Positions 5,522 through 62,703 of a DNA stretch of 64,000 bases are shown here, piece by piece (positions within the stretch are counted from its first letter, which is position 1; every line of letters begins with the position of its first letter). Source of the DNA: Spirochaetales bacterium. GTDB lineage: Bacteria > Spirochaetota > Spirochaetia > SZUA-6 > RPPD01. Where the stretch lies: NCBI GenBank assembly GCA_016929065.1, contig JAFGJO010000055.1:401-64400 (forward strand), written 5' to 3'. The position numbers and the translations under genes were made by a program. The notes beneath the pieces were generated by a model. The model searched no databases. It worked only from the letters and a program-made list of their open reading frames with translations, and was not told the origin of the DNA.

Positions 5522-5950
5522 ATGGCTGTAAAACAACAGGAAGAACAGTCTATGAAAATAAAGTTTGATTTAATCGGTATTTTTGTAGGTGACATTCATA
5601 AAATGGTTTCTTTTTACAGGGATATCATCGGTATTGCCACTGACTGGAAGGATGACCCTCCCTATGCTGAGTTTCAACATGACGGAATCCGGTTTGCGAT
5701 GTATGAGCGCAGGGAGCTGCCGAAATTGCTGGGGCAGATGCCGGAATATCCTGAAAAACTGAACGGGACGTTTGAGCTCGCCATAAATGTGGGTGAACCC
5801 GAAAACGTAGATGTGTATTTCAATAAATATGTTGATGCAGGAGCCGTGCCGGTGTACGAGCCGCGAAACGAGCCATGGAAAATGCGGTCTGCCATGATCG
5901 CAGATCCCGAAGGGAATTTAATCGAAATTGGATCGGACTTTTGGGAGTAG
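5522..5950 (+). CDS. VOC/glyoxalase-bleomycin-resistance family protein
   Basis: Size and pattern typical of small VOC proteins. Confidence 0.65.
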   Translation: MAVKQQEEQSMKIKFDLIGIFVGDIHKMVSFYRDIIGIATDWKDDPPYAEFQHDGIRFAMYERRELPKLLGQMPEYPEKLNGTFELAINVGEPENVDVYFNKYVDAGAVPVYEPRNEPWKMRSAMIADPEGNLIEIGSDFWE

Positions 5951-5986
5951 TACCAGTGAAAGTTTTCCCTGATGGCAGGTAATCTG

Positions 5987-8428
5987 TTATCCTGACGGCA
6001 GGGTAACAATCAGTTTTGTTCCTTTATTTAACTCACTTTCGATTGTTATTGATCCATTGTGGTGCTCTACGATTCGTTTACAGATTGCAAGCCCGATCCC
6101 CGAACCTTCATACTGTGTACGGGTATGCAGCCGTTGAAACACTCCAAAAATACGGTCATGGTATTGTGCATCAATTCCAATGCCATTGTCTTCAAATATA
6201 ATAGCATGTGAATTCTTCGTCCGCGGCCCCAATGATATCGTTATTTGTGGTTGAATGTTTTCCTGGTGAAATTTCAAGGAATTGGAAAGAATATTCTGAA
6301 AAAGCTGGAACATCTGGATTGGTTCTGCCTTGATGACGGGCAGTTTTTCAACGGTGATTTTCGCGTTTGATTCCTTGATAACAAGATCCAGTACCGAGAG
6401 CACCTCCCTGACAATTAATGAAAGATCGACAGTTTTAAGGTCCTCCGCAGTAACTTTAACCCGCGAATAGGCAAGAAGGTCGCGGATCATTTCACGCATT
6501 AAATCGGTCGCGTTGATGATTTTTGAATAATATCCCTTTGAGATATCCGTCTGTTCCCGCGCGATAAGCTCGCTGAATACGGAAATCTTTCGAAGCGGTT
6601 CCTGCAGATCATGCGCAACGATATAGGCAAATTGTTCAAGTTCCCTGTTCGACCGGGCGAGTTCCTGTTTTTGAAGTTCAAGAGTCCTTTCAGATTGAAT
6701 TTGTTTTTCTAGAATCATGGTTCCCCAGATAATACTGCTTAGCTGCATTCTCAATAGCACATACACTGATGTCTCTTTCGGGCCTGCTTCAAATACAGCG
6801 TAGCCTATCTGGTTTTCCTTGTAGTAGAGCGGTTCTGTGACAAGTGTCATGGGTGCGCCGGCTGGCAAGTATTCCTTCGGAATCAGATGTTCGGCGGAAA
6901 AAAAGATTTCCTGATCACCCGAAAAAACAAATTTTCGTTCCCCCCGGGTGTACGCAAGAATGAGCCGTGCTTCATTATATACCGGGGCATTTTTCTGATT
7001 GTACAGACAAAGATAGAAGGATGGAATATCAAATGATGGTAATTCACGGGCAAGGATATCCGCCAGTTCCTCTATATTGAAAATGGTTGTCCAGGAATGG
7101 CCTGTGTGAATCAGCGTTTCGGTATATTTGTGCAGTTCCAGCCACTTTTTTGTTTCCTCTTTTGCTTCAAATTCCTTGATAAGAACAAGTGCATGCTGCA
7201 GAATATGCAGGCAACGGGTGATTTGCGAGGCACTTAAATTCCACTCGGGCCGTGGCCTGCATATTCTCACAATTTCATCCAATCTGAGTGCGCTGATTCC
7301 TGTTTTTCCCGTTTTTTCCAAAAAAGAACCAAGTGTTACATGAAATTGGCCGTGGCTGGCTTCTGAAAAATCAGCAATAAAACTGGTCGCCAGAACGCGG
7401 TCCCATTGTTCTGTGTCGTTTACAATTCCTTTTGGCAACAGTCTGGAAATCCCGTTTATCAGCTCCTGGGCGAGTGCAGGGTAATCCGGAATTATCGTGG
7501 TATGCGCATCCGGAGATTCCGGAGTTGGGGAGATGGACAGGTTTTCCAAAACATTTTTACAGCCGCATGACTGCCGGTATATCGGTTTACAGGGTATGGT
7601 TGTTATTTCCGGAATGATTTTTCCCGATAATTTGTCAAGCAGTAGCTTTGCTGCAATTTGCCCGCGTTCATACAGCATGATCGGGGCGGTGGTGAGTGAC
7701 GGTGTGTTTGCCCTGCATTCGGGGCGTTCATCGAACGCAATGACACTTACATCCCCGGGGATGTTGATTCTACGTTTTTCCAGCTCCAAAAGGGCTCCAA
7801 TAATAAATTTAAGGCTGGCTCCCGCAACCGCATCAAACGCGATTCGGTGTTCATCACAAATCTTCCTGATTGTTTCGACACCATGTTCCGGGGCCCAGTC
7901 GCGGTTTTCCGAGACAAGCAGGGGGTCATAGGGTATCCTGTTTTTGTCCAACGCGTCCTTATACGCCCGGAACCGTTCCGAACTGTCGAAATGGTTCCGG
8001 GGGCCCTGTATGAAAACTATTTTCTTTCGGCCATGCACATTAATCAGATGGTCAATCATTTCATACATGCCGCTATAGCTGTCCGCGAGCACGCTTGGAA
8101 TATTCGCTATCGGAGTCCCAATCGAAACAACGGGCATGACAGCGGAATATTTTTCGCAAAATGACTGTAATTCATCGGGTGTGACAAAACAGCCGATTAC
8201 CGAGGCCCAGATTATCAGTGCATCGATATTCGATTTTCCGATAAAATTGTACAGAATGTTGCCCTGTATGTTATATTCGTTTTGATCCCTGAGGCGACCA
8301 CCGTTAAAATGGATTAAATTGAAATTCTGTTCCACAGAATAGTCGGTGAGCCCATGAAACAGGTCATGATCGTTTGAATCGGTCAAATCATATGCAAGAA
8401 GGCCAATGGTGTATCGGGTTTTTTTCAC
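5987..8428 (-). CDS. Sensor histidine kinase with N-terminal periplasmic-binding-protein (LacI/sugar-binding-like) domain
   Basis: N-terminal PBP-like fold motifs. C-terminal HisKA (AHDLQEPLRKI) and HATPase_c (GSGIGLAICKRIVEHHNG). Confidence 0.8.
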   Translation of the reverse strand: MKKTRYTIGLLAYDLTDSNDHDLFHGLTDYSVEQNFNLIHFNGGRLRDQNEYNIQGNILYNFIGKSNIDALIIWASVIGCFVTPDELQSFCEKYSAVMPVVSIGTPIANIPSVLADSYSGMYEMIDHLINVHGRKKIVFIQGPRNHFDSSERFRAYKDALDKNRIPYDPLLVSENRDWAPEHGVETIRKICDEHRIAFDAVAGASLKFIIGALLELEKRRINIPGDVSVIAFDERPECRANTPSLTTAPIMLYERGQIAAKLLLDKLSGKIIPEITTIPCKPIYRQSCGCKNVLENLSISPTPESPDAHTTIIPDYPALAQELINGISRLLPKGIVNDTEQWDRVLATSFIADFSEASHGQFHVTLGSFLEKTGKTGISALRLDEIVRICRPRPEWNLSASQITRCLHILQHALVLIKEFEAKEETKKWLELHKYTETLIHTGHSWTTIFNIEELADILARELPSFDIPSFYLCLYNQKNAPVYNEARLILAYTRGERKFVFSGDQEIFFSAEHLIPKEYLPAGAPMTLVTEPLYYKENQIGYAVFEAGPKETSVYVLLRMQLSSIIWGTMILEKQIQSERTLELQKQELARSNRELEQFAYIVAHDLQEPLRKISVFSELIAREQTDISKGYYSKIINATDLMREMIRDLLAYSRVKVTAEDLKTVDLSLIVREVLSVLDLVIKESNAKITVEKLPVIKAEPIQMFQLFQNILSNSLKFHQENIQPQITISLGPRTKNSHAIIFEDNGIGIDAQYHDRIFGVFQRLHTRTQYEGSGIGLAICKRIVEHHNGSITIESELNKGTKLIVTLPSG

Positions 8429-15753: not shown

Positions 15754-16130
15754 ATTTTTATCTTTGTTTATAAATTAATATGAAATCATTATCGTTGACA
15801 ACTTTTAACGGGAAAAACAGGATTTAATTTCCTGACCGTGGCTGCGTTTTTTCACAAATATACTGTGTCACACTGAGGTATTCGTCCCTCGACCAGCACG
15901 AAACAGTATGCCGGTATTTTAATAAAAGGGGGAAAATATGAAAAAGGCGCCTATTTTTATTTCCTGCTCCTTATGTTCAGTTTGATGCAGCAAACTGGAG
16001 TTCTTTTTTGATACGGTGACGGATGGCCTCAGGCTCGCTGCCAGTCGAAAATCATTGACACACCGTGGCGGAGTGACTCCCTTGTAGGGTCGCGGAGAGA
16101 AAAAGGCTGTTGGGTGCAGTAGTGCTCCTC

Positions 16131-16159
16131 TTGACATATCACTAAATTATCATTATTTT
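16131..16159 (+). promoter_or_regulatory. Putative sigma70 promoter of the phd-relE module
   Basis: TTGACA, 17 nt, TATTTT. RBS gagagg follows. Confidence 0.3.
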
Positions 16160-16181
16160 GATATTGAATGAGAGGTTGTTA

Positions 16182-16448
16182 ATGCCCAAAATAAGGCCGA
16201 TTTCAGATTTACGGAACAATTTTACACAGTTATCAAAAAGTCTCCACGAAGAGAATGAGCCGATTTTCCTCACAAGAAATGGTGTCGGTGACATAGTTGT
16301 TATGAGTATTTCATACTATGAGAAATTATTAGCCAAATACGAGGTTTATCAAAAATTAGATGCTGCAGAAACTGAAATTAAAGATGGGGCACTTGGAAAA
16401 GATTATAAAAGCGTAATTAGAAAAGCCAAAGCAAAAATTAATGCCTAA
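16182..16448 (+). CDS. Phd/YefM-family antitoxin
   Basis: MPKIRPISDLRNNFTQL... resembles YefM. Overlaps the downstream toxin by 8 nt. Confidence 0.8.
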   Translation: MPKIRPISDLRNNFTQLSKSLHEENEPIFLTRNGVGDIVVMSISYYEKLLAKYEVYQKLDAAETEIKDGALGKDYKSVIRKAKAKINA

Positions 16449-16749
16449 GAAAAAATATTCAGTTTTGATTTATCCACTTGCAGAGCAAGATATGGATGAG
16501 ATCATATTGTTTCTAAAAGAACTTTCATTGAAAGGGGCCAATGCTTTTTTAGATAAACTATCATCAAAACTGAACAAGCTTGAAGAATATCCAGAAATGT
16601 TTCCCCTCGTTAAGGATGAAAGACTTTCTGAAAAAGGATATAGAATAATTCCAGTTGATAATTACATCGTGTTCTACGTAGTAATGAAAAAAAATGTACA
16701 AGTCAGAAGGATGATTTATGGAAAAAGAAATTATTTCGATTTCCTGTAA
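16441..16749 (+). CDS. RelE/ParE-family toxin
   Basis: About 100 aa with a typical ParE/RelE C-terminal pattern. Coupled to the Phd gene. Confidence 0.8.
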   Translation: MPKKKYSVLIYPLAEQDMDEIILFLKELSLKGANAFLDKLSSKLNKLEEYPEMFPLVKDERLSEKGYRIIPVDNYIVFYVVMKKNVQVRRMIYGKRNYFDFL

Positions 16750-16830
16750 ATCTGCTGAGCACTATTGCGCCAAACGGGAAGCGCCAGGCTCTCGAAGCAT
16801 AACGCTGCTTGATGTTTAATAACCAATAAA

Positions 16831-16873
16831 AAAAACCGTCTGTGTACTTGAAAGCACAGGCGGCTTTTTATTG
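16831..16873. terminator. Bidirectional terminator between convergent toxin-antitoxin modules
   Basis: aaaaaaaaccgtctgtg-tacttgaaag-cacaggcggcttttt. Confidence 0.55.
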
Positions 16874-16919
16874 TCAGCGCAGCGTCAAGGCTTCTATTCG
16901 TTGGGTGAAGTGCGCTGAT

Positions 16920-17312
16920 TCAAAGGAATTTCAATCCATGCTTTTTGTAAAGGTCCAAATTTTCATCCAGACTGAGTAATGTGAAATCATTTTGAATTGC
17001 TTGCCAAATAATTGCCCTATCAAATGGATCTTTGTGTTCTATGGGAAGCTTGTAAAATGAAATAAGCTCTTGATTCTCATTTTTTTTGCAAACAAAAAAA
17101 CTATTTTCAACTTCATTGAAAAGTTGTTCTGGATTGATACCTTTAATATGAAGTTTCCCTATGCCGTATTTTATTGATATTTCCCATAAGCTAAATTGAC
17201 TATAATAAATTGTATGATCATTGTTTAAGAGAATCTTTTGGAATTTAGGTTTCAGCTTCTCAGGATTGGTAAAGGACCAAATCAAAATATGAGTATCGAC
17301 AATAAAATTCAT
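16920..17312 (-). CDS. vapC: PIN-domain VapC toxin
   Basis: N-terminal FIVDTHILIW PIN motif. About 130 aa. 4-nt overlap with the upstream antitoxin. Confidence 0.8.
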   Translation of the reverse strand: MNFIVDTHILIWSFTNPEKLKPKFQKILLNNDHTIYYSQFSLWEISIKYGIGKLHIKGINPEQLFNEVENSFFVCKKNENQELISFYKLPIEHKDPFDRAIIWQAIQNDFTLLSLDENLDLYKKHGLKFL

Positions 17313-17548
17313 GAAGTCAATAACTCGTCATCGGTAATAATGAAATCTTTGGAAAAGCTTACTTTTACCTTTCCCTTGAGGGATCCAAGTTTCCTGTTCT
17401 GGTTTTTCTTATATTCACTATAAGGAATAATGACGGCTATTGTTTCTTTTTTACGACCGAATGAAATAGCGATTTTATGTCCAGATTCAACTTCTTTTAA
17501 AAGAGAAGAAAGATGAGATTTTACTTCAGCAACCGGAATAGTTTTCAT
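17309..17548 (-). CDS. Phd/YefM-type antitoxin partner of VapC
   Basis: 79 aa. MKTIPVAEVKSHLSSLLKEV... Operonic. Confidence 0.75.
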   Translation of the reverse strand: MKTIPVAEVKSHLSSLLKEVESGHKIAISFGRKKETIAVIIPYSEYKKNQNRKLGSLKGKVKVSFSKDFIITDDELLTS

Positions 17549-17688
17549 ATGATAAAGTTAGCATAAGTGACCAACATAGTCAAGTATTATTTTCGGCCCC
17601 AGGAATTGCATACAACGTTCAGTGTTGGCGCCCGATCAGGGCGTGGAGGTTTACACAGTATTGAAGCTGCGGCGGGTAATAATAACGT

Positions 17689-17722
17689 TTGACAATACTA
17701 ACGTTAAGCAGTATTATACATT
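17689..17722 (+). promoter_or_regulatory. Promoter with overlapping palindromic operator for higBA (probably leaderless)
   Basis: TTGACA (17689-94), 17 nt, TATTAT (17712-17). Inverted repeat aatact..agtatt around the palindrome aacgtt. ATG at 17723. Confidence 0.45.
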
Positions 17723-18025
17723 ATGCTACAGTCTTTTCAAGATAAAGAAACGGAAAAGGTATGGAATCAAGAATACTCAAAAAAGTTACCAAGGGATATT
17801 CAAAGGGTTGGGTTAAGAAAACTGTTTATGCTGAACAGGGCAATAGATTTGGATGATTTGAAAATACCACCATCAAATTGCCTGGAAAAGTTGAAAGGCA
17901 ACAGGAAGGGGCAATTTAGTATCAGAATTAACCAGCAATGGCGAATATGTTTTAATTGGAAGGACGGGGAAGCATACAAAGTTGAGATTGTAGACTATCA
18001 TCAGGAGGATTGTAATGAAAGATAA
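17723..18025 (+). CDS. higB: HigB toxin (RelE/ParE superfamily)
   Basis: KGNRKGQFSIRINQQWRICFNW motif. Confidence 0.8.
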   Translation: MLQSFQDKETEKVWNQEYSKKLPRDIQRVGLRKLFMLNRAIDLDDLKIPPSNCLEKLKGNRKGQFSIRINQQWRICFNWKDGEAYKVEIVDYHQEDCNER

Positions 18026-18314
18026 AATACCAAATATATATCCAGGAGAAATCCTCGAAGAAGAGTTTATAAAGCCGATGAATATATCAGCCTACAGGCT
18101 TGCTAAAGAAACACATTTACCCGCAACAAGAATATCAGAAATATTGCACAATAAGCGGAAGATTACAGCAGACACGGCTTTAAGATTTTCAAAATATTTT
18201 GGTAATAGTCCGGATTTCTGGCTAGGAATACAAATCGAGTATGATTTACGCGAAGAGATGGCAAAGAATAAAAAAGAAATTAATCAGATAAAGAAAATCG
18301 AAATAGCTGTTTAG
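18015..18314 (+). CDS. higA: HigA antitoxin (XRE helix-turn-helix)
   Basis: Overlaps higB by 11 nt. Helix-turn-helix. Confidence 0.85.
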   Translation: MKDKIPNIYPGEILEEEFIKPMNISAYRLAKETHLPATRISEILHNKRKITADTALRFSKYFGNSPDFWLGIQIEYDLREEMAKNKKEINQIKKIEIAV

Positions 18315-18382
18315 GAATTAATTCCGGCTATAATTTCAGATTACTCCTGGTATACCCACAACTCTTCAATTAAAAAACGAAT

Positions 18383-18622
18383 ATGGAGGTAAACTATGAG
18401 AAAAAACATTATGATTTTTCAAATGCAATAAAAAACCCTTATATAAATAAACTCAAGAAGCAAATATCTATTCGATTGGATAATGATATCTTGGAATATT
18501 TTAAAGAATTATCAGAGGAGATTGGTATCCCTTATCAAAAGTTAATAAACTTTTATCTTGCCGAATGTGCTAGTAAACGTATCAAACCAAAGCTTGTCTG
18601 GAATAATAATGCAAAGGCATGA
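18383..18622 (+). CDS. BrnA-like antitoxin, N-terminally short, with no BrnT partner
   Basis: KNPYINKLKKQISIRLDNDILEYFKELSEEIGIPYQKLINFYL matches the BrnA C-terminal region as I remember it. The GGAGG sits better for an 11-codon out-of-frame ATG at 18397. Confidence 0.55.
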   Translation: MEVNYEKKHYDFSNAIKNPYINKLKKQISIRLDNDILEYFKELSEEIGIPYQKLINFYLAECASKRIKPKLVWNNNAKA

Positions 18623-18639
18623 CATCTAACGGTTGAGAG

Positions 18640-18795
18640 TGAATCTAAAGCTACAGGATATCGATTCAAAAAACAAGACCATTACTGTCAGGCAGGGGAA
18701 AAGATATAAAGACAGGCAGATTGTTTTTTCCGATACGCTGTATGGTATTCTGAAAGAGTACTACCGTATAGCCTCATTGAATCGGCAAAATTAAA
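18640..18795 (+). pseudogene. Tyrosine-recombinase (XerC/D, integrase) C-terminal fragment
   Basis: Translates to ...ITVRQGKRYKDRQIVFSDTLYGILKEYYR, a degraded copy of the recombinase GKGxKxRxVPL motif. 51 codons with no start. Confidence 0.4.
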
Positions 18796-19181
18796 CAACT
18801 GAATCCGTTTGAATATTTATATTACATGTATTCGAAAATACCGTACGCCAAAACACAGGAAGATTTTATTTCATTGTTATCGTTCAATCTTGATCCTGAA
18901 AAGATCAAGGGAGGGTAAGATTTAGCGCTTACAAACCTTTGATCGCAGTGTCTTTTTGATACTGCTGGGTAATTGTTTGATGCATAACATCCTCCTTGAA
19001 TTTGTTTCAAGGAGAATTCCAATCGATTTTAAATTTATTCATAAAAATGTCGCAAGATAAGCCGCCGCCGGCAGGCGGTTTTGTTCAACGGCAAGCGCCA
19101 GGTTGGAGCCGAAGGCGGAACGCAGGACGCGCAGTTAGGCGATGTATTTGATTTTTAAAACACAATATTATTTAACACTAA

Positions 19182-19976
19182 TCAAAAAGGTATACCATCA
19201 GGCTCTTTAGTTTTTGACTCATTATGAAATGACAGGAGATTCTTGTTGTTTTGAATCCATTGTATACCGTTTTTAGTAACTACATATGCTTTGTATTCTT
19301 CATTATTATATTCAGTATCAGTCAATATCTTAGTTGCTAAAAAACCTTTTTCTTCCAATGCTGTCACACCAAGAGCTACAGCAATATCATTAAAATTTAA
19401 ACTGAGCATTTTTTGTTTGAGCTGATATTGAGATATACCTCCATCCATTGTTGTCCAATATGCAAATGCGGTAGATAGAATTGCAACCTCATAATCTTTG
19501 AGATCAGATTGTTGTTCAGTTTCCGGTTTTAAAGTTTGAACACTAGACATTCTTGAGTAATCTTTTAACTCATTTTTAGTCCATTTTATGATATTTTTTT
19601 CTAATTCATCATATCCGCTTCTGGAATCAGTACGGTAATATATTACTGGTCTATGTTGAATATCAAAAGGCAGACGACTTCTTTTTGCTTTATCGCATAA
19701 AATAACAGTGGGTCTAAAAAGAGCCAATGCATATCCTAATTCTAACCATACATTTGGATTGTCTTCACTAACTTCGGCGATACAAATTGCTGCAGAACGA
19801 ATATTTGATTCGATTTTTTCAATTATAGGATTTAAACCTAAAATATCGTCTGCTCTTTGAGGATCAACATTTGCCTTTAATAATGCAGGTTTAATAGTTT
19901 CTATATATCTTCTATCATAAGGCCCATTATCAAAGTGTTGGATAACAAAACAAAGTGGTTTGGTATTTTCACTCAT
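19182..19976 (-). CDS. Nucleoside 2-deoxyribosyltransferase-like domain fused to a C-terminal winged-helix-like domain
   Basis: ATG at 19976 with aaaGGAG 5 nt upstream (the track's longer start is TTG). NDT-like beta1 CFVIQHFDNG and catalytic-region pattern NVWLELGYALALFRPTVIL. AT-rich context. Confidence 0.65.
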   Translation of the reverse strand: MSENTKPLCFVIQHFDNGPYDRRYIETIKPALLKANVDPQRADDILGLNPIIEKIESNIRSAAICIAEVSEDNPNVWLELGYALALFRPTVILCDKAKRSRLPFDIQHRPVIYYRTDSRSGYDELEKNIIKWTKNELKDYSRMSSVQTLKPETEQQSDLKDYEVAILSTAFAYWTTMDGGISQYQLKQKMLSLNFNDIAVALGVTALEEKGFLATKILTDTEYNNEEYKAYVVTKNGIQWIQNNKNLLSFHNESKTKEPDGIPF

Positions 19977-20364
19977 ATCATGCTCCTTTAACAATAATTA
20001 TTATTGCTTTAAAATAACATCAAACATATCACCCATCTCCCGGTATCTGCACAAATCTTTACCTGAAAATCATACTCAGATTAACTATCCCCTGCAAGCA
20101 AAAAAAAAGTGGTTATAAATTGGTATTTACGTGGATGATTGAAAGTGTTCCCTAACAAATTATGGAACACTTTCAAACCAATAGGAGTGACCTCAAGGCC
20201 ATTTAAACCGAGCTCTTGAATTTACAGCCAGCTTGACCGCATGGTATTGTATGGATATCAGTTATCCCGTCTCGAACCAGTTTCGAGGCTATTCGCGAAA
20301 ACGCGCGCGATTGAACGCGTGCGTGGGTATTCGTAGTACACTCATCCTGTCTCTTTGTTGCTGT

Positions 20365-50322: not shown

Positions 50323-53307
50323 ATGCGGAAAATCCTGATTCTTCTCATGGGAACAGCACTTATTCTGTTTGCAGCATTTGCCTGTGATCCAAAGACATCC
50401 GGTAAAGATGATATTACGGTTTCAACTGAGTCCTTGGCAAATGGATTTAAAGGCACTGTCTATACACCAGTGCAGCTTGAGGCAGCCGGCGGAGACGATA
50501 CTGCATATTCATGGCAGGTCACCTCCGGGACAATGCCTGCGGGTTTGACGCTTTCAGCAGCCGGAGAGATTTCCGGAACACCAACCGAGGACGGAGAATT
50601 TATCTTCACGGTTCAGGTGAGTGATGCCATAAATAATCCGGGGACACAGGAGCTTTCAATTCAGGTTGACGCCATTGCAATCAGCCCCGCAACACTCACA
50701 GCAGCGCAAAAAGACGAAATATATTCGGCGACGATCAGTGCATCCGGCGGACAGGCTCCCTATACCTTTACACTTGATGCCGGCAACGTTCCCTCCGGTT
50801 TGGGCCTTGCTGTTGACGGTTCAATCACCGGTACGCCGGATACCTTTGAAGTGTGTGATTTTACCGTGCTCGTGACTGACAATAATGGCGCATACAATGA
50901 GCATGATTATACTCTTTCGGTCATTTCCGGTGTTCCCGTCGAGATCGATACCACATCCTGTGCGAACGGGTTTATCAACGGTACGTACTCAGAAACAGTT
51001 TCTGCTTCGGGTGGACAGGGGACCTATACCTGGACAATTTCTGCCGGCACTCTGCCTGCAGGGCTTTCAATAAATCCATCAACCGGTGAAATATCGGGAA
51101 CTCCTTCCAGTGCGGGTTCATCAACCTTTACGGTCCGGGCGACCGATGATGTTGAAACAGCGAACTATGGCGAACAGGAATTCACCATCGTCATCCGCTC
51201 CGCAGTGAGTGTCACCACTACTGTCTGTGATAACGGGTTTGAAGGCGGCTCCTATTCCGAATCCGTCGCGGCAACCGGCGGTTCGGGGACCTATACCTGG
51301 AGCATTGCTTCCGGCGCCCTGCCGACAGGATTGAGCATTAATCCTTCAACCGGTGAAATATCCGGTACCTCATCTGCAGCGGGAACATTCAATTTTACGG
51401 TCAAAGCAGAGGATAGCGAAAACCCGGCGAATTCCGACAATCAGGCATTGTCAATTGTGATTGGTACGGCAGTTTCGATTACCACCGCCACGCTCCCCTC
51501 GGTCGGCGGCAATATCGTGTATTCCGAGACATTGGGTAAAACAGGAGGAAGCGGAAGCTATACATGGTCGATCGATTCAGGATCGCTGCCGCAGGATGTG
51601 ACCCTTGGTTCTTCGAATGGTATTATTTCCGGGTATCCGGGAAAACCGGGGACCTATACATTTACCATTCGCTGTGCAGACAGTGCGAACTCGAATAATT
51701 ATGACACCCAGTCATTATCGATCGAAGTAACCAATTTTGAATGGACCTTGATGATTTACCTTGACGGTGATAATAATCTGGAACCGTTTGCATTCGCAGA
51801 TATCAATGAAATAGAAGCCGCAGACCTCCAGGGATATGGAATTAAAGTGATTGTCGTCATGGATGGAAATGGCGGTTATTACAGCGAGACAAGTGCATTC
51901 AGCGGCACGCGGCTGTATGAAATAACCTATGATTCTGCCGGTGATGCCACAACGACAGGTATACAGTCCACACGGCTCGCATCAACAGCGCTTGGATTGT
52001 CTGCTACCGGCACGCAGGAGCTCAACATGGCAGATCCCGCAACAGCAACAAATTTTATTACGTTTGTAAAATCAAATTATGCAGCCGATGATTATTCTCT
52101 GATTTTCTGGAACCATGGCGACGGGTGGAGGAGTAAATCTGAAGATGAAAAGAAGGATGTCTGGAAAGCTGTCTGTTCTGACGATACATCATCAGATATT
52201 TTATCCACAAAAGAAATCGGTCAGATTGTCTCCGGGCAGGGACTGTCGCTTATCGGGTTTGATGCATGTCTGCTCGGCATGATGGAAGTAGCATACGAAC
52301 TCAAGGCAGATGCCGAAGTCATGGTTGGCTCCGAGGAGAATGAACCGGGTGACGGCTGGGAATATGATACCCTGCTCAATAATTTCAAGGCAAAAGGAAC
52401 AAAAGAGGCAGAAGACCTGGGTGAATCAATTGTCACTGCGTATCAGACACGATACGCGGCGACTGCAGGGACGACTCTTTCTGCTATCAGACTGTCAGAA
52501 ATGGATAATCTGGTTTCAGCCTTGGAAACATTTATAACAGGATGTAACTCGGCAGGGTTTGAAACAGTGTATGCAGCGATAAATTCAGCCGGTTCGGTAC
52601 AGAGATTCGGCGGAGATGGTGAATTTATGTCGCATCTCGATATATGGGACCTTGCAGATACACTTTCTTCTGTTGCGGGAGCAAGTGCATTAAAGACCGC
52701 GGTCGAAGATGCAGTCATACAAAATTTCCATTATGGAACAGCGGTCGCCAATGCGCATGGAATCGCCTTGTATTTTCCGATGAACAATGATGTACTCGGT
52801 GTGCCGTTCCAGGCATACAGCACAGCGTACCTGGATTTTGCAGGAGACGGAAACTGGGATGAGTTTATTCATACAATCTGGCGGGGAAATGACGCGTACG
52901 AACCGAATGACAATTTCCTGATTGCCGCGACAACCATATCTGATGGTATTAACTACAACGCATATATCCAGTTTCCCGGTGATGAAACAACCGAAGTCTG
53001 GGCAGACCAGGATATTTATAAGTTTTATGTTACCGCAAACGGTACATTTACATTCAATCTTTCTGCGAACGGGAACTCGGATATTGACGCAGTCATTCTT
53101 CTTATTCATGAATCGGATACAGGAACTGTTCTCACCGGTGCAGACAGCACCTATATGTACGGCGATGAATCATTTTCGTACAACACAACGACAGGAGCAG
53201 GAACAGGCTGGTATTATGTAATTGTGATGTCCTATGGACTGGATGAATACGACAGAACCGATCCCTATACAATCAATGTGGTGCAGGGAACTGCGACGAT
53301 TCAGTAA
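50323..53307 (+). CDS. Secreted multidomain protease: 5-6 putative-Ig (He_PIG-like) repeats, C11 clostripain-like peptidase, C-terminal PPC domain
   Basis: Repeated ..SASGG.G.YT..L..G.LP.GLS.. units. C11 motifs LMIYLDGDNNLE, His FWNHGDGW and Cys GFDACLLG. PPC-like tail. Confidence 0.8.
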   Translation: MRKILILLMGTALILFAAFACDPKTSGKDDITVSTESLANGFKGTVYTPVQLEAAGGDDTAYSWQVTSGTMPAGLTLSAAGEISGTPTEDGEFIFTVQVSDAINNPGTQELSIQVDAIAISPATLTAAQKDEIYSATISASGGQAPYTFTLDAGNVPSGLGLAVDGSITGTPDTFEVCDFTVLVTDNNGAYNEHDYTLSVISGVPVEIDTTSCANGFINGTYSETVSASGGQGTYTWTISAGTLPAGLSINPSTGEISGTPSSAGSSTFTVRATDDVETANYGEQEFTIVIRSAVSVTTTVCDNGFEGGSYSESVAATGGSGTYTWSIASGALPTGLSINPSTGEISGTSSAAGTFNFTVKAEDSENPANSDNQALSIVIGTAVSITTATLPSVGGNIVYSETLGKTGGSGSYTWSIDSGSLPQDVTLGSSNGIISGYPGKPGTYTFTIRCADSANSNNYDTQSLSIEVTNFEWTLMIYLDGDNNLEPFAFADINEIEAADLQGYGIKVIVVMDGNGGYYSETSAFSGTRLYEITYDSAGDATTTGIQSTRLASTALGLSATGTQELNMADPATATNFITFVKSNYAADDYSLIFWNHGDGWRSKSEDEKKDVWKAVCSDDTSSDILSTKEIGQIVSGQGLSLIGFDACLLGMMEVAYELKADAEVMVGSEENEPGDGWEYDTLLNNFKAKGTKEAEDLGESIVTAYQTRYAATAGTTLSAIRLSEMDNLVSALETFITGCNSAGFETVYAAINSAGSVQRFGGDGEFMSHLDIWDLADTLSSVAGASALKTAVEDAVIQNFHYGTAVANAHGIALYFPMNNDVLGVPFQAYSTAYLDFAGDGNWDEFIHTIWRGNDAYEPNDNFLIAATTISDGINYNAYIQFPGDETTEVWADQDIYKFYVTANGTFTFNLSANGNSDIDAVILLIHESDTGTVLTGADSTYMYGDESFSYNTTTGAGTGWYYVIVMSYGLDEYDRTDPYTINVVQGTATIQ

Positions 53308-56792: not shown

Positions 56793-58769
56793 ATGAATAA
56801 AATACCCAATAATCCATACATCGTTGGAAATCCGATCAAAACAAAGGAGATGTTTTTCGGACGCGAAGACGATTTCATGTTTGTCACCCGAAAAGTGGGT
56901 GTTGAAAAGGCGAACCAGGTTATTATTTTCTGCGGTGAGCGTCGATCGGGAAAAACGTCAATTCTGTTTCAAATTCTTTCCGGACAGCTGGGTGAGTTTT
57001 TTTTGCCGATTCTTGTTGATATGCAGATCCTTGCCGGGCTGAAAAGCGATTTGGAGTTTTTTCGGGCAGTGCTTGAGGTGGGATGTGAGAGCCTGAAGAT
57101 ACCGGGACTCACGCTTGAAGCTGTGGAAAAGGAAGCGCGCGAAAAAACCGTGGAAAGAATTTTTGAGGCATTTCTGGCTTTTGTTGCCAAATCCTGTCCC
57201 GGAAAGGTTGTTTTGTTTTTGCTTGATGAATATGAGCTTATCGAGGCGAAAATAAAGGAAGGGAGCTTGAGTGAATCGGTCATTCATTACCTTTCGGGAG
57301 TGCTTGAGAGCAAATACAGGATTTCATTTATTTTTACCGGCTCAACCAACCTGGAAAACAGAAAAGTCGATTACTGGAAATCATTGCTCGGAAAATCCAT
57401 TTATCGGAAAATATCATATTTATCAGAACATGACACCCGGAGGCTGATCACCGAGCCTCTGAAAAACCATATTGATTACCCGGATGAAGTAATTGACCGG
57501 ATTTACCGGCTCACCGGCGGACAGCCCTTTTATACACAGGTAATGTGCCAGAATCTTGTTGACATTCTCATGGAAGAAGGCCGGAATGATCCGGAAAAAA
57601 AAGATCTCGAATCGGTTGTGAAGGATATTATCGAGAATCCGCTGCCGCAGATGATCTATTCATGGAACAGCCTTGGGGACTGGATAAAATTTACCATGTC
57701 CTCTCTTGCCGGAGCGTGTCACACCTCAAAAGACTGGGCGGATGCACAGTCGGTGTATCAGTATCTTTCCAAAAGTAAAATCGCCCTGACGTTTAAACGG
57801 GAACGGCTGAATGTGTTTCTGGAGGAAGCGTATCAAAAAGAATTTCTGCAGAAAAACGATCAGAGCGAATACTGTTTTAAAATGGATTTGTACCGCCGGT
57901 GGATCCGCAAGGAACATTCGATATGGAAAGTGATCAAGGAAGTCAAACTGGAGATAAAAAAATCGGCGGGAATTAAAAAGATCGTCGCGATCGCGGCGGC
58001 GGCGGGGATCCTTGTCGGGATCGGCATCGTGATTACATTCATTATTATTAATGGCGGCTCACAGCATGCGGTCACTGTAGAAGACGGTCAAATTCGCGGT
58101 TTGAAGGTCATTTCAAACCAGGCGCCGTTCCAGGTGATGATTGATGATGCCCTTACGGTTACCAGCCAGGGGCTGGAAAACGAAAAGGAACTCGTTCTGC
58201 CCCCGCTTTTGCCGGGAAAGCATGTTTTTGTGTATCAGAATCCACGGACCAAAGAGCGCAGAGTGGATACTGTTGAAATCAAGGCAGGTATGAATGATCT
58301 CTCTATCCGGTTTCTGCAGGAAGATCCCGGTTCGAATATGTCAGCAGATGCAGGGTCATTGTTTGTGTCCTCCTCTCCGGACGGAGCAAAAATATATATC
58401 GATGGGAAATATCATGCTACATCTCCCAAAGTGATCAGCAATATCACGGCAGGCCGGCACAAAGTAACCGTTGAGCGCGAAGGGTACAGAACGGAAGAGT
58501 TCTGGGTTGATGTAACTGTTCAGGGAATCACCGAACGTAAAATACAACTATCCCCTGTTTATGGTTATGTGTCTTTTAAGATACTCCCCACGGCAAAAAT
58601 ATATCTTGACGGTGCATTTTTGGTTGAAGTACCCATTGTCGAGCCGAGCCGGATACAAACCGGAAAACATACTCTGACAATTGTCAATGAAAGTATGGGA
58701 TACCGGGAGGATATTCCCATTGTTGTCAAAGAGGGAGAGACAGTTCCCATCGAAAGGAAATTGCGATGA
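56793..58769 (+). CDS. Membrane-spanning P-loop NTPase: cytoplasmic archaeal-ATPase (PF01637)-like module, one TM, two periplasmic PEGA domains
   Basis: FFGREDDF followed by Walker A GERRSGKTSIL and Walker B LLDEYE. TM segment IVAIAAAAGILVGIGIVITFIII. PEGA patterns (..PDGAKIYIDGK...G.HKVTVEREGY). Confidence 0.75.
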   Translation: MNKIPNNPYIVGNPIKTKEMFFGREDDFMFVTRKVGVEKANQVIIFCGERRSGKTSILFQILSGQLGEFFLPILVDMQILAGLKSDLEFFRAVLEVGCESLKIPGLTLEAVEKEAREKTVERIFEAFLAFVAKSCPGKVVLFLLDEYELIEAKIKEGSLSESVIHYLSGVLESKYRISFIFTGSTNLENRKVDYWKSLLGKSIYRKISYLSEHDTRRLITEPLKNHIDYPDEVIDRIYRLTGGQPFYTQVMCQNLVDILMEEGRNDPEKKDLESVVKDIIENPLPQMIYSWNSLGDWIKFTMSSLAGACHTSKDWADAQSVYQYLSKSKIALTFKRERLNVFLEEAYQKEFLQKNDQSEYCFKMDLYRRWIRKEHSIWKVIKEVKLEIKKSAGIKKIVAIAAAAGILVGIGIVITFIIINGGSQHAVTVEDGQIRGLKVISNQAPFQVMIDDALTVTSQGLENEKELVLPPLLPGKHVFVYQNPRTKERRVDTVEIKAGMNDLSIRFLQEDPGSNMSADAGSLFVSSSPDGAKIYIDGKYHATSPKVISNITAGRHKVTVEREGYRTEEFWVDVTVQGITERKIQLSPVYGYVSFKILPTAKIYLDGAFLVEVPIVEPSRIQTGKHTLTIVNESMGYREDIPIVVKEGETVPIERKLR

Positions 58770-59683
58770 ATGAGATGTTGAATAAAAAAATATTTTTTTT
58801 TCTTGTTGTATTTTTTATTTCAGTTTTATCAATATCTGCTCAGGAACCCGTTTCTGCAATAACCGGAACAGCGGAGCGGGTTAATCAAATTCAGCAGTTG
58901 TATCGAAGTGCAGAGTATGCACAATGTCTTCAGCTTATTGATACTGCGATCAAACAGCATGAGGACGGCAGTGTGGGACTCCCCTTTTTTCAGCTGGCGC
59001 GGGTCTATATATTCAAAGCGCTTGTTGTCTATGCATACCGTGAAGAGGGGTTTCAGGAAACCGTAAAGGAATTACTCCTGAAAGCGGTTTCTACTGATAT
59101 CAATTTTGAATTTGATGATTATGCAATTATCCCGACGTACATTGTCGATATGTTTGTAAAAATAAAACGCGAGTATCTGGAGCAGTTTTCAAAAACCACA
59201 CGCCGGCACACGCTTGGTGTGTACGGTTCGTTGACCGCACTGCCGACACTTCTTGATAATCCGGAATATTTAAAGCCGGGGATTCATTATTCATTCAATT
59301 TTTCAGAGTCCTTTATGCTGCTCGCCGATGTTGAATTCCCCGCATCCGGAAATATCTTCAACACTATTATGGGGCGTGCAGGGGTTATCTGGTTCCCCTC
59401 ATTTAAAATCGAAACAGTATCGATGGGGCTCGGAATGATGTATGCAATGAGAGTTGAGCGCAATGCGAATACACTTCATGTTTTTTCTGTAGAAGGATAC
59501 GGGGAACTGATTTTACGGTTTGGGTTGGGGTTGGCTGCCAGCATCGAGCTGGTCCGCTTTGACCTGAGTGTTGGAGATTACCCGAGCAATTTTAGCAGCG
59601 GTGGTGCAGTCAGTTTTTTTCAGAGTGACTCTGCTCAGCTCTCGTTTGCCAATTTGCGCATATACATATTTTTTACATTTTAA
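58766..59683 (+). CDS. Secreted protein with C-terminal outer-membrane beta-barrel-like region
   Basis: ATGA overlap with the upstream gene. Signal peptide. C-terminal amphipathic strands ending ...IFFTF. Confidence 0.55.
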   Translation: MNEMLNKKIFFFLVVFFISVLSISAQEPVSAITGTAERVNQIQQLYRSAEYAQCLQLIDTAIKQHEDGSVGLPFFQLARVYIFKALVVYAYREEGFQETVKELLLKAVSTDINFEFDDYAIIPTYIVDMFVKIKREYLEQFSKTTRRHTLGVYGSLTALPTLLDNPEYLKPGIHYSFNFSESFMLLADVEFPASGNIFNTIMGRAGVIWFPSFKIETVSMGLGMMYAMRVERNANTLHVFSVEGYGELILRFGLGLAASIELVRFDLSVGDYPSNFSSGGAVSFFQSDSAQLSFANLRIYIFFTF

Positions 59684-59692
59684 GGAGCAGCC

Positions 59693-60694
59693 ATGGTAAA
59701 TCCGGAACTGCCGGTTGTCGATCCGAATCAGTTTATCGGCCAGCGGAGTACTGTCAGAAGAATCTTTTCCCGAATCGGCGCCGAGCGTCCCCAGTCGGTG
59801 GCTGTCATTGGCGGGCGAAAGATTGGAAAAAGTTCCCTGCTGAATTATTTGAATACTGCACAGGCCCAGCAAGAAAATTTAACTGATTTGGAAAATTATA
59901 TTTTTCTTCACTTTTCTCCCCAAAATGACCCTGAGTTGAGTGTCGATGTTCTCCTGCACCGGATCCTTCTCGATCTGGGTGCGACAAACGGGGGGAATGA
60001 AAGTCTTTATACAACGCTGCAAAGGACTGTTGAACAGCTGCATCATTCGGGAAAGAAAATTGTTTTCATGTTTGATGATTTTCATAATACAACGACCAAT
60101 GAAAATTTTCCCCTTGAGTTTTTTTCGTTTCTGCGGTCGCTGGCAAATAATTATAACCTTGCGTATGTTACCAGTTCCTATCTTGAACTGCAGAAGCTGT
60201 GTGTGGCAAAAGATATAGAAGAATCTCCGTTTTTCAATATTTTTACAAACGTACCTGTCGGACTCTTAAAACACGACGAGGCTGCAAGCCTTTTTTCCCG
60301 ACTTACCGGGCTGGATGAGCAGGAAGTTGAACGTGTCGTTACATGGTGCGGTCCGTCCCCGTATGTAGTGAAACTGATCGCTTCCCGGATTAATGATGCG
60401 GTGTTAAACCTGAATAATCTGGAAAAAGAATTTTTACCGCTTCTTTCAGACTATTTTACCATGATTGTATCTGTTGTTCCCCGGGCTGCATTCAAGCCGT
60501 TAAAAGAACTCGTAAAAGGAAAACAGCCCGGGCAGCACGAATCGTATCTTCTCCAGCCGCTTGTCCGGCACCGGTTTCTTGAGGAAGATGAAGACCAGAT
60601 CATGTTTTTCTCGGAGGCATTCAAGCTTTTTATCATGAAAAAGCTGACACCGGAAATGCTTGTCGGCCACGAGAATAAAACCAGACAGGAGTAA
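59693..60694 (+). CDS. Stand-alone paralogous archaeal-ATPase-like P-loop NTPase
   Basis: FIGQRSTV...GGRKIGKSSLLNYL, FMFDDFH, SPFFNIFT, C-terminal winged-helix-like tail. aaGGAG RBS. Confidence 0.7.
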   Translation: MVNPELPVVDPNQFIGQRSTVRRIFSRIGAERPQSVAVIGGRKIGKSSLLNYLNTAQAQQENLTDLENYIFLHFSPQNDPELSVDVLLHRILLDLGATNGGNESLYTTLQRTVEQLHHSGKKIVFMFDDFHNTTTNENFPLEFFSFLRSLANNYNLAYVTSSYLELQKLCVAKDIEESPFFNIFTNVPVGLLKHDEAASLFSRLTGLDEQEVERVVTWCGPSPYVVKLIASRINDAVLNLNNLEKEFLPLLSDYFTMIVSVVPRAAFKPLKELVKGKQPGQHESYLLQPLVRHRFLEEDEDQIMFFSEAFKLFIMKKLTPEMLVGHENKTRQE

Positions 60695-60700
60695 CAGGCA

Positions 60701-62464
60701 ATGCCGAATATTGATGATCTTCTTCGAAAAAGAAAAGAACTTATGGAAGAAATCGACCAGGAGATCAGATCCCGGTATACCAAAGCAGTAACCCTTCTTT
60801 TTACCGATATTGTGGGGTCGACCCGGTTTTTTGAGGAAATGGGCGATATCGCAGGTCGGCAGATGATTCAGACGCATAATGACCTGCTGTTTCCTGTGAT
60901 TGACAAATTCGGGGGACGGGTGATCAAGACAATCGGTGATTCCATCATGGCCAGCTTTGACGACTCAAAGCAGGCTGTAAGCGGCGCAGTGACGATGCAG
61001 AAGGCATTGGAAAAATACAACAAGGCGACCGATGACAGGCATAAAATACGCGTCCGGATGGGACTGCATTTTGGTGAAGCGGTGGTCGATGAAAAAGACC
61101 TCTTTGGCGATATGGTCAATACTTCCGCCCGGGTGGAAGCGCGGGCGAATGCAGATGAAATCATTATTTCCCATGCATTAAAGGAACAGATTGAGGGACA
61201 TGATTTTCCCATGGTGTTTCTGGGAACCGATGTGGTTAAAGGCAAGAAAGAGAAAATTGATTTTTTTCTGGTAAACTGGAATTCCCGGGATGAAAAGGAA
61301 ATTGTCGAGTCGTGGAAAACACGCATCACCATCACAATTACGCATGAAAAAAGCGCAGCAAAGGCGCCCGGTGTGGTAGTCAAAAAAAATATTGCCATAT
61401 CCCCGGATATTCCCCCGCTCACGCGGAAGGGAAATCCGTATCTGAACCGTGTCATGCTTCCGCATCCTTCTCTGTTTTTCGGAAGAAAAGCGCTGGTAAA
61501 ACGGATCTTTTCAAGGATAGAGTCGGATCGGCCTCAGTCAATTTCTGTTGTCGGCGAGCGCAGGATTGGAAAATCGTCTCTGCTGAATTTTCTGAATTTT
61601 CCAAGCACCCGGGCAGCGCTGATGTCTGCACCCGAAAAATATATTTTTACATTTGTCGATTTTCAGCAGGTCCGGGCCCAGGCGGCAAGTGAAATTGTCG
61701 GAATCATTTTCCGGGAAATGGAGCGGACTCTCTGTGACGGCATTTCAATTAATGTTGAACCGGATTTTGACGGAATGAAGACACTGGTTGAAGCAGTCAC
61801 TTCTGCGGGGTTCCGCCTGATTTTGTTTTTTGACGAGTTTGAATCGGTGACGAAAAATGAGCATATAAAGCCGGATTTTTACAGTTTTTTCCGCTCCCTG
61901 GCCAATAATTACCCGCTCGCATTTGTGACTGCAAGCGGACGAAATCTCAAGGATATGTGTGTTACCCACGAAATTTCCGATTCCCCTTTTTTCAATATCT
62001 TTACTGTTCAGAATGTCGGGCTGTTCAGCGAAAAGGAGGCAGCTGAATTAATCGCCGGACCGTCTGTAGAATCCAGGGTGCCGCTTGCCCCGCTGACAGA
62101 GTCAATTATTGCTGAAGCAGGCTGTTATCCGTTTTTTTTGCAGATGATGTGCGGTGCGTGGTTTGAATATCTGGATGCAGAAGGGGCAATGGCGGAAGAA
62201 TTCACCTCGAAACCGGCACCCAAAGAGGTGATTGCCCTTTTTAAAGAAGAAGCAGAACCTCATTTCGAATATATTGCAGAGACTTTTTCAAAAGAAGAAG
62301 AAAAGCTGTGCAGACAAATTGCAGATCAGAAGCCGGTCGCAACAGATTCACCGGTTGCAGAACAGTTGTTGCGGCGGGGGTATTGTATCGAGGATGAGCA
62401 GCGGGGACTGCGCCTGTTCGGCAGTCAGTTTGAATTGTTTTTGAAAAAATATTATTCACGGTGA
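60701..62464 (+). CDS. Class III nucleotidyl cyclase fused to a paralogous P-loop NTPase
   Basis: N-terminal LLFTDIVGST...KTIGDSIMASF...GDMVNTSARVE. Then FFGRKALV...GERRIGKSSLLNFL, FFDEFE, SPFFNIFT. Confidence 0.75.
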   Translation: MPNIDDLLRKRKELMEEIDQEIRSRYTKAVTLLFTDIVGSTRFFEEMGDIAGRQMIQTHNDLLFPVIDKFGGRVIKTIGDSIMASFDDSKQAVSGAVTMQKALEKYNKATDDRHKIRVRMGLHFGEAVVDEKDLFGDMVNTSARVEARANADEIIISHALKEQIEGHDFPMVFLGTDVVKGKKEKIDFFLVNWNSRDEKEIVESWKTRITITITHEKSAAKAPGVVVKKNIAISPDIPPLTRKGNPYLNRVMLPHPSLFFGRKALVKRIFSRIESDRPQSISVVGERRIGKSSLLNFLNFPSTRAALMSAPEKYIFTFVDFQQVRAQAASEIVGIIFREMERTLCDGISINVEPDFDGMKTLVEAVTSAGFRLILFFDEFESVTKNEHIKPDFYSFFRSLANNYPLAFVTASGRNLKDMCVTHEISDSPFFNIFTVQNVGLFSEKEAAELIAGPSVESRVPLAPLTESIIAEAGCYPFFLQMMCGAWFEYLDAEGAMAEEFTSKPAPKEVIALFKEEAEPHFEYIAETFSKEEEKLCRQIADQKPVATDSPVAEQLLRRGYCIEDEQRGLRLFGSQFELFLKKYYSR

Positions 62465-62505: not shown

Positions 62506-62703
62506 ATGAATTGTCAAAACAAACCACAAAATAAAACACAATGCAATTGCACCTATCCGGGATGCAGCAGGCACGGCGTCTGCTGTGAATGCATCCAGTA
62601 CCACCGCCGAAGCAATGAACTCCCTGCCTGTTTTTTCACTGCACAGGAAGAGCGTACATACAATCGCAGTATTTCTTTTTTTGTAAAAAACCGTTCACGG
62701 TAA
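62506..62703 (+). CDS. Small Cys-rich protein (C-x-C...C-x3-G-x-C-C-x-C)
   Basis: 65-aa ORF with 8 Cys in an ordered pattern. Confidence 0.4.

Follow-up and report, generated by a model that had tools for sequence, protein, structure and literature searches.

The nSTAND2 domain was defined by Kaur, Iyer, Burroughs & Aravind (eLife 2021; PMC8195603) in a mobile two-gene operon that was predicted to be a counter-invader system. In that operon a C-terminal winged helix-turn-helix-TPR-HEPN or GT4 effector is carried by the partner whose nucleoside triphosphate (NTP) motifs are eroded, and the same paper lists the Calditrichaeota version of the cassette analysed here as one supplementary row, without comment (PMC8195603). 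Within a 64,000-nucleotide stretch from a Spirochaetales bacterium (contig JAFGJO010000055.1, positions 401 to 64,400; the whole stretch is called the window here), we analysed a cassette of four genes, g1 to g4, which encodes two nSTAND2 ATPases, one of them fused to an adenylate cyclase, together with a more distant ATPase paralogue predicted to sit in the inner membrane and a predicted outer-membrane protein. We read the cassette as a trans-envelope signalling module that would turn an extracytoplasmic cue into cyclic AMP (cAMP), and give this reading a probability of roughly 0.5.

The cassette and the described operon have in common adjacent paralogous MNS-like STAND genes, a predicted hetero-oligomer and a variable effector fused to one partner; g3 and g4 are themselves adjacent (6-bp gap) and both lie well above the PF20702 (nSTAND2) threshold. 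They differ in that the cassette has three ATPases, all with intact motifs, and no eroded effector partner, that one of these ATPases, g1, appears to be membrane-anchored with a periplasmic domain, that an outer-membrane protein is included, and that its effector, a cyclase here and a kinase in other phyla, lies at the N-terminus, in place of a C-terminal HEPN or GT4 domain. The described operon is, moreover, mobile and cytoplasmic, whereas the cassette is syntenic and chromosomal in Spirochaetota.

N-terminal class III cyclases and/or Ser/Thr kinases fused to an ATPase of the STAND type are also found elsewhere, actinobacteria included, and we take as comparators the mycobacterial STAND cyclases Rv0386, Rv1358 and Rv2488c, the STAND kinase PknK and the TOMM fusion TIGR03903. 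These share with g4 both this arrangement and a presumed nucleotide-dependent oligomerisation that controls a dimerisation-dependent output, and the domain order kinase-cyclase-ATPase is that of the Calditrichota homologues described below. However, they use ATPases of the MalT/AAA_16 clade, are soluble, have a TPR sensor in cis and often carry a LuxR helix-turn-helix domain, whereas g4 has an nSTAND2 ATPase and no sensor in cis, its likely sensor being a separate membrane-anchored paralogue. The archaeal ATPase_2/MNS STAND proteins (PF01637; PDB 2qen, PABY2304, and 2fna, SSO1545) are soluble, single-module proteins with no transmembrane (TM) helix, PEGA domain, cyclase or kinase. In type II secretion, ExeA/GspA of the ExeA/GspA-ExeB pair resembles g1 in its N-terminal cytoplasmic P-loop ATPase, single TM helix, periplasmic domain and tie to an outer-membrane protein, but ExeA binds peptidoglycan, aids secretin assembly and has neither STAND paralogue partners nor a cyclase or kinase output; the sole sequence link between the two is a weak match of g1 to AAA_22 (E 0.0015). 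Pycsar, too, is a bacterial cassette of several genes that includes a cyclase of the class III fold, and g4 weakly matches the PADLOC models of its cyclase, PycC; in contrast to Pycsar, the present cassette has no effector gene, its cyclase has an adenine-type K/D pair, and that cyclase is fused to a STAND module and linked to envelope proteins.

Literature searches (PF20702; STAND with adenylate cyclase plus PEGA or periplasmic) returned no description of this cassette. The view of an earlier note on this DNA that it is not a described system was nearly right, with the qualification that nSTAND2, the two-gene operon and the uncommented Calditrichaeota row were already in print (PMC8195603). 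The nSTAND2 domain, the two-gene nSTAND2 operon and cyclase- or kinase-STAND fusions are thus already known; what appears to be new, judged from sequence, is putative STAND signalling built from three paralogous modules, one at the membrane and two in the cytoplasm, to which an outer-membrane protein is added as an accessory.

Composition of the four-gene cassette

The four open reading frames (ORFs), the stop/start overlap of g1 and g2 and the gaps of 9 bp (g2-g3) and 6 bp (g3-g4) are as the earlier note had reported them (Table 1). The sequence AGGAG lies just 5' of g3 and likewise of g4, and the GC content is even over the cassette region. The further claim that this spacing implies co-translation and a stoichiometric complex goes too far, as short gaps alone are insufficient; it is suggested solely for g1 and g2, which overlap by the same 4 bp in 15 of the 17 orthologous loci from spirochaetes.

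Table 1. Features of the cassette, with nucleotide positions counted from the first letter of the window and residues numbered within each protein
Feature	Position	Strand	Description and basis
g1	56793..58769	+	658 residues; predicted inner-membrane MNS/ATPase_2-like STAND ATPase with periplasmic beta-sandwich region
g1 cytoplasmic ATPase module, residues 1-385	56793..57947	+	family-wide conservation; HHalign against the nSTAND2 family
g1 single TM helix, I397-I419	57981..58049	+	hydropathy peak 2.73; Lys-rich cytoplasmic stretch before it
g1 PEGA domain 1, residues 521-586	58353..58550	+	Pfam PF08308
g1 PEGA-like domain 2, residues 589-658	58557..58766	+	below gathering threshold in the window, above it in orthologues
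g1/g2 ATGA stop/start overlap	58766..58769	+	read from sequence
g2	58766..59683	+	305 residues; predicted secreted outer-membrane protein
g2 domains			signal peptide ~1-25 (SISA, then Q); TPR-like helical domain ~31-139; 8-stranded-type beta-barrel ~148-305, end ...RIYIFFTF
g3	59693..60694	+	333 residues; stand-alone nSTAND2 ATPase
g4	60701..62464	+	587 residues; adenylate cyclase-nSTAND2 fusion
g4 class III cyclase catalytic domain, residues 26-191	60776..61273	+	Guanylate_cyc; conserved N-terminal helix 4-26 ahead
g4 nSTAND2 module with helical and winged-helix domains, residues ~276-587	61526..62461	+	Pfam and structure model

On their sequences the three ATPase modules are homologous from end to end, as had been proposed, with g1 the more distant paralogue. 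Both g3 (E 1.5e-29, 103.6 bits) and g4 (residues 276-546, E 3.6e-44, 151.6 bits, full model covered) match PF20702 far above its gathering threshold of 24 bits, and the two modules are 31% identical (E 8e-45). The identity of g1 to g4 is 23% over 271 residues (E 2e-6), and a profile-profile comparison of the g1 family (66 modules) with the g4 family (85 modules) gave a probability of 99.75% (E 2.9e-27) for an alignment of 306 columns that takes in both Walker motifs and the GxP helical motif as well as the N-terminal NPY...FFGR. No match of g1 to PF20702 was found at E≤1. The label PF01637-like, given at the outset to all three proteins, is close, g1 scoring 32.0 bits against ATPase_2 (PF01637), slightly below the gathering threshold of 33.2, but g3 and g4 are more specifically PF20702 nSTAND2 proteins, a family within the MNS/PF01637-like STAND clade. 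Among the g1 orthologues, the precomputed Pfam annotation has a weak ATPase_2 mark in L007 and a faint one in L003, leaves L001 unmarked and lacks the mark in L005. Besides AAA_22, g1 matches AAA_14 and the PEP-CTERM-associated ATPase TIGR03015 (0.0013) weakly, and a PDB sequence search with g1 gave no match.

The g1 module contains NPYIVGNP...FFGRE, Walker A at G48-T55 (GERRSGKT), Walker B at D145-E146, GGQPFYTQ (GxP) and a winged-helix tail. The corresponding elements are Walker A G40-S47, Walker B D128-D129, ESPFFNIFT and a helical and winged-helix tail in g3, and Walker A G285-S293, Walker B D378-E379 and DSPFFNIF (427-434) in g4. The motif SPFFNIFT, which had been assigned to all three, is thus found in g3 and g4 only, and g3 has FIGQR and DD where FxGR and a Walker B DE had been read. 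Walker A G285, G290 and K291 and Walker B D378 and E379 of g4 are invariant in 64 homologues, and the P-loop GK and Walker B Asp are kept in 25 members of the g3 family and also in g1; because the P-loop GK and the acidic Walker B residues are conserved in all three families, none of them appears to be a degenerate ATPase. In keeping with STAND NTPases, the modules consist of a nucleotide-binding oligomerisation domain (NOD) that holds the P-loop and both Walker motifs, a helical domain with GxP and, after it, a winged helix. An AlphaFold2 (AF2) model of g4 (predicted local distance difference test score, pLDDT, 87.6) has the N-terminal helix 4-26 running straight into the cyclase, then a low-confidence linker, the NOD (260-440), the helical domain (444-527) and the winged helix (531-586). 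Neither g3 nor g4 has a C-terminal repeat sensor in the same polypeptide by Pfam or AF2, both ending at the winged helix, and no TPR, HEPN or GT4 domain was matched in g4 by Pfam or its AF2 model; g3 is, as first described, a bare ATPase with no sensor or effector domain. A PDB search with the g4 profile matched cyclases only, so that no solved nSTAND2 relative is detectable by sequence.

Where STAND proteins have cytoplasmic repeats, g1 carries a TM helix, conserved in all eight orthologues examined, and periplasmic PEGA. Since the ATPase needs ATP, residues 1-396 would be cytoplasmic and residues 420-658 periplasmic. The first PEGA domain (PF08308) is well supported, with 63 bits for the whole protein and 58.9 bits for the isolated segment 517-588 against a gathering threshold of 20.8; the second reaches 20.9-23.2 bits in L001, L003 and L013, against 15.4 bits in the window. 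The single TM helix and one of the two PEGA domains initially claimed therefore stand, while the second PEGA fails the threshold in the window itself. The beta-rich periplasmic segment at ~430-512 has no Pfam assignment, nor have the orthologous segments. We consider g1 to be, on predicted topology, an inner-membrane protein with a STAND-type ATPase module in the cytoplasm and a beta-sandwich region, made of one unassigned domain and two PEGA, in the periplasm. The motif DLxRxWIxxxHSIWxV (g1 residues 363-381; 57879-57935) is very strongly conserved at the end of g1-type modules; it lies next to the membrane in proteins with an N-terminal ATPase and at the extreme C-terminus in those with a C-terminal ATPase, and so is part of the module and not a linker to the TM helix.

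The protein encoded between the ATPase genes, g2, had been described as secreted and beta-barrel-like, and this is confirmed by its signal peptide, AF2 barrel and beta-signal. An alignment of 21 orthologues begins with a signal peptide of the kind cleaved by signal peptidase I; the N-terminal half is helical, and the C-terminal half finishes with FANxxxYxFYTF, a beta-signal of the outer-membrane-protein type. The AF2 model (pLDDT 77.9), made from a shallow alignment of 10 sequences (word-indexed homologue searches gave 5, then 10 proteins), places five helices within residues 31-139 and a beta-barrel at ~148-304. With its signal peptide, antiparallel barrel and aromatic-ended C-terminal beta-signal, g2 resembles small outer-membrane barrels of the OmpA/OmpW/OprF-N type, and no match was found in Pfam, NCBIfam or PADLOC. 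The signal peptide, the beta-signal and the modelled fold together suggest that g2 is anchored in the outer membrane with its TPR-like domain toward the periplasm.

An N-terminal class III cyclase in g4, as originally noted, is borne out by a Guanylate_cyc match of 75 bits (7e-21; gathering threshold 21.9) and by six catalytic residues, D36, D80, K76, D133, N140 and R144, all invariant in 64 homologues. From knowledge of class III cyclases we take D36 and D80 to bind metal, K76 and D133 to be the adenine-specifying pair, and N140 and R144 to serve the transition state. By sequence the catalytic set is complete and adenine-type, and among solved proteins the adenylyl cyclases Ma1120 (5.5e-37) and Rv1900c come nearest in sequence. 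With the exception of the ATPase_2 score of g1 and the second PEGA, the Walker, PEGA and cyclase assignments all pass the profile thresholds on which the earlier note had made them depend. Two family assignments were considered for g4 and rejected: the TOMM kinase/cyclase family TIGR03903 (22 bits against a cut-off of 705.75) and a peptide-modification cyclase family (39 bits against a cut-off of 400).

Conservation in Spirochaetota and beyond

A scan of species-representative genomes gave 79 loci, in which ORFs were called and classed with iterated profiles built from the window proteins. Homologues of g4 at 62%, 52%, 45% and 38% identity lie in similar cassettes with differing flanking genes. 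Among the 16 assessable Spirochaetota loci g1 is present in every one, and the full order g1-g2-g3-g4 is found in 14, at g4 identities of 49-71% (this count includes L021, in which the g2 ORF call is over-extended). Members of one subclade have flanking genes in common: upstream, a pseudouridine synthase and a DUF6938 gene in the window, L010 and L025; six downstream genes in L001, L009 and L026; and three flanking genes in L003, L020 and L021. This subclade-wide synteny, together with the housekeeping neighbours, argues for vertical inheritance of the four genes as a unit at a chromosomal site and against a mobile island; no mobile-element genes were found at the cassette.

The association recurs in at least seven phyla, and across phyla a g1-type ATPase gene adjoins an nSTAND2 gene in 62 of the 69 assessable loci. 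The co-occurrence of the NTPase genes in other genomes, on which the original interpretation was staked, is thus found, in all 16 assessable spirochaete loci as well as more widely. The nSTAND2 partners each carry a cyclase, a Ser/Thr kinase or both. A search with the g1 module returned 808 cluster representatives (50% identity) at E≤1e-30, a number that rises to 3610 at E≤1e-10. The module always occupies one end of a longer protein; of the 134 top representatives with an extension, 126 have a TM-like segment no more than 90 residues from the module boundary. The extracytoplasmic domain of the g1-type protein varies, and may be PEGA, a CarboxypepD_reg domain with a Reg_prop propeller, or TPR. 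From this pairing across phyla we deduce an invariant core, consisting of a membrane-anchored STAND-like ATPase with a variable outside domain and a sensor-less nSTAND2 protein with an output domain. The distribution over phyla is patchy, and ancient transfer between phyla is possible.

In Calditrichota the g1-type protein (~770 residues; ATPase, TM helix, periplasmic domain) is followed by the gene for an outer-membrane barrel and then by a g3-like protein, ORF-called in 4 of 11 loci, and a kinase-cyclase-nSTAND2 fusion. This barrel is unrelated to g2 (Phenol_MetA_deg 27.3 bits, signal peptide, C-terminal GLEFSF, 433-462 residues when intact) and occupies the operon position of g2 in all nine loci where it was found, being called as two ORFs in L027 and L032. 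That an unrelated barrel fills the place of g2 suggests that the outer-membrane component is functionally required. In L027, a Calditrichia metagenome-assembled genome (MAG), the barrel gene at 5712-7009 is split into ORFs of 198 and 220 residues and is a frameshift pseudogene unless the assembly is in error; six other loci have it intact.

The Cloacimonadota loci run cyclase-nSTAND2, g3, g1-type, with a g1-type protein of ~1480 residues and no intervening gene noted. In Blastocatellia and other Acidobacteriota a protein of ~1400 residues has a signal peptide or TM segment, CarboxypepD_reg, a Reg_prop propeller, a TM helix and a C-terminal ATPase, and is paired with an nSTAND2-Ser/Thr kinase protein; no gene was noted between the two for this group as a whole. 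One Blastocatellia MAG (L041, 8384-8960) has two small ORFs of 94 and 103 residues between the g1-type and nSTAND2-kinase genes, the first of which may resemble the BrnT/DUF497 toxins. The Glassbacteria and Gemmatimonadales proteins are arranged as periplasmic TPR, TM helix and ATPase, with a gene for a secreted ThuA-like protein (62 bits, Pfam) between the g1-type and kinase-nSTAND2 genes in all five loci (L042:6885-7616, L059:6562-7287, L051, L069 and L084). Together with g2 and the Calditrichota barrel, this makes three kinds of extracytoplasmic accessory that occupy this place in the operon.

A possible route from the envelope to cAMP and its alternatives

STAND proteins undergo ligand-triggered nucleotide exchange and oligomerisation, and the active site of class III cyclases lies at a dimer interface. 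In the signalling module that we propose, the periplasmic region of g1, probably acting with the TPR-like domain of g2, would detect a ligand or a change in the state of the envelope or outer membrane, and this would drive nucleotide exchange and oligomerisation of the cytoplasmic module of g1. The homologous modules of g3 and g4 would then co-assemble on the switched g1 as a hetero-oligomer, pairing the g4 cyclase domains into active dimers that produce cAMP; g3 would serve as an effector-less adaptor or stoichiometry regulator that is dispensable in some lineages. This conversion of an outside cue into cAMP is made more probable by the variation of the extracytoplasmic domains across phyla and by the finding that every output is a kinase or a cyclase. 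The earlier note had likewise read the locus as an envelope sensor wired to cyclic-nucleotide synthesis: the architecture (an inner-membrane ATPase with periplasmic PEGA, an outer-membrane barrel, a bare ATPase and a cyclase-ATPase) is upheld, and the mechanism is plausible.

Several points weigh against this signalling role. The four-part complex is not obligatory, as L022 has g1-g2-g4 and lacks g3, and L005 has g1-g3-g4 and lacks g2. The cassette is not consistently accompanied by a gene for a cAMP receptor or a phosphodiesterase, PEGA domains are not known to have a defined ligand, and all of the sequences compared come from MAGs. STAND ATPases are common in immunity, where they are frequent sensors. 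The nSTAND2 domain itself was introduced as part of a predicted counter-invader module of two STAND proteins (PMC8195603). The last two points favour an anti-phage or conflict system, either a variant of the nSTAND2 counter-invader operon that bears a cyclase or a system akin to Pycsar, with a cyclic nucleotide alarm raised when infection activates the STAND protein, and weak PADLOC matches to PycC cyclases (best 2.3e-9) and to PDC-S27 (0.005) could be read in the same sense. We nevertheless consider defence unlikely. The PycC matches (at most 34.9 bits) span the generic cyclase fold only, the specificity residues being the adenine-type K/D, and across PADLOC-DB v2, NCBIfam and PHROGs the four proteins gave only generic cyclase or ATPase similarity, g1 and g2 having no PADLOC match. 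There is no toxin, effector or cyclic nucleotide-binding effector gene within or beside the cassette, the sensor-like domain is extracytoplasmic and thus ill-placed for phage proteins in the cytoplasm, and the eroded motifs and C-terminal TPR and HEPN or GT4 domains of the described effector-bearing nSTAND2 protein contrast with the invariant motifs and N-terminal effector seen here. The locus is also syntenic within subclades among housekeeping genes, with no defence island, and a scan of viral contigs found no copy of it, no nSTAND2 and one giant-virus cyclase domain only. The STAND-type defence module that had been offered as the alternative is weakened accordingly by the lack of a convincing PADLOC match and of an effector.

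A slightly less probable, and likewise doubtful, explanation is that of an ATP-driven envelope machine, in which an ExeA/GspA-like g1 assembles, gates or remodels g2 or the cell wall and g3 and g4 report on or regulate the process. The layout of g1 resembles that of ExeA/GspA, and its weak matches to AAA_22 and TIGR03015, the conserved overlap of g1 and g2 and the barrel at the same operon position in Calditrichota are all consistent with such a machine; but Acidobacteriota, Glassbacteria and Gemmatimonadales keep the pair of g1-type and nSTAND2-kinase proteins with no outer-membrane barrel gene, and g2 is absent in L005. The ever-present partner is instead a STAND protein bearing a kinase or cyclase, which points to signalling, and the GxP motif and winged helix of the g1 module are traits of STAND proteins and not of a translocating AAA+ ring. 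Incidental packing of unrelated neighbours, with g4 an autonomous soluble cyclase, is very improbable: although promoter and terminator scans of the cassette were no better than those of shuffled sequence, and g2 or g3 is missing in some loci, gene order and tight spacing are kept down to 49% g4 identity despite different flanks, and the cross-phylum pairing of g1-type and nSTAND2 genes is not what chance neighbours would give.

The window may be one case of a widespread mode of bacterial transmembrane signalling, in which a membrane-anchored STAND receptor with a variable extracytoplasmic sensor recruits and activates a sensor-less nSTAND2 kinase and/or cyclase by ATP-dependent hetero-oligomerisation and some diderms add an outer-membrane partner that extends sensing to the surface; we hold this generalisation tentatively, at somewhat less than even odds. 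Known STAND ATPases, such as MalT, Apaf-1, NLRs and Avs, are soluble cytoplasmic switches. A membrane-anchored, periplasm-facing STAND family paired with kinase or cyclase paralogues would be a new way of sensing the outside, a distinct architecture beside two-component systems, receptor kinases and pairs of extracytoplasmic function (ECF) sigma and anti-sigma factors, and the outer-membrane partner of diderms would point to surface-to-cytoplasm signalling that uses neither TonB nor an anti-sigma factor. Such a system would be relevant to the envelope-stress and cAMP biology of spirochaetes, and would caution against taking every STAND or nSTAND2 operon for defence.

Neighbouring genes and other features of the window

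A protein with HD/HD_5 domains (HD-GYP-like; flank cluster C1) is encoded near the cassette in four spirochaete loci, L001 (11102-12265), L009, L026 and, upstream, L015, and the gene at a weak PilZ match in L001 is also common to L009 and L026. A link between cAMP and cyclic di-GMP signalling is possible from these neighbours, which may equally reflect coincidental synteny.

In the window, the neighbours of the cassette encode a C11 peptidase lipoprotein, a HAD hydrolase, RluA, DUF6938 and DUF6485 proteins. The last of these, a Cys-rich protein of 65 residues (62506-62703, + strand), begins 41 bp 3' of g4. When ORFs of at least 100 residues were compared, the window had no downstream flanking gene in common with any of the 17 other spirochaete loci, and the DUF6485 gene is therefore probably unrelated to the cassette. 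The peptidase gene (50323-53307, + strand) encodes 994 residues that begin like a lipoprotein and contain five He_PIG Ig-like repeats, a Y_Y_Y domain and a Peptidase_C11 domain of the clostripain type. Further away, the GC content falls to 0.34-0.36 at 16000-20000, compared with 0.43-0.50 in the rest of the window. This stretch carries a PIN-like (VapC-type) ORF (16920-17312, - strand) and a 270-residue ORF whose family was not recognised (19182-19994, - strand), and may have been acquired as a small island or be a toxin-antitoxin locus.

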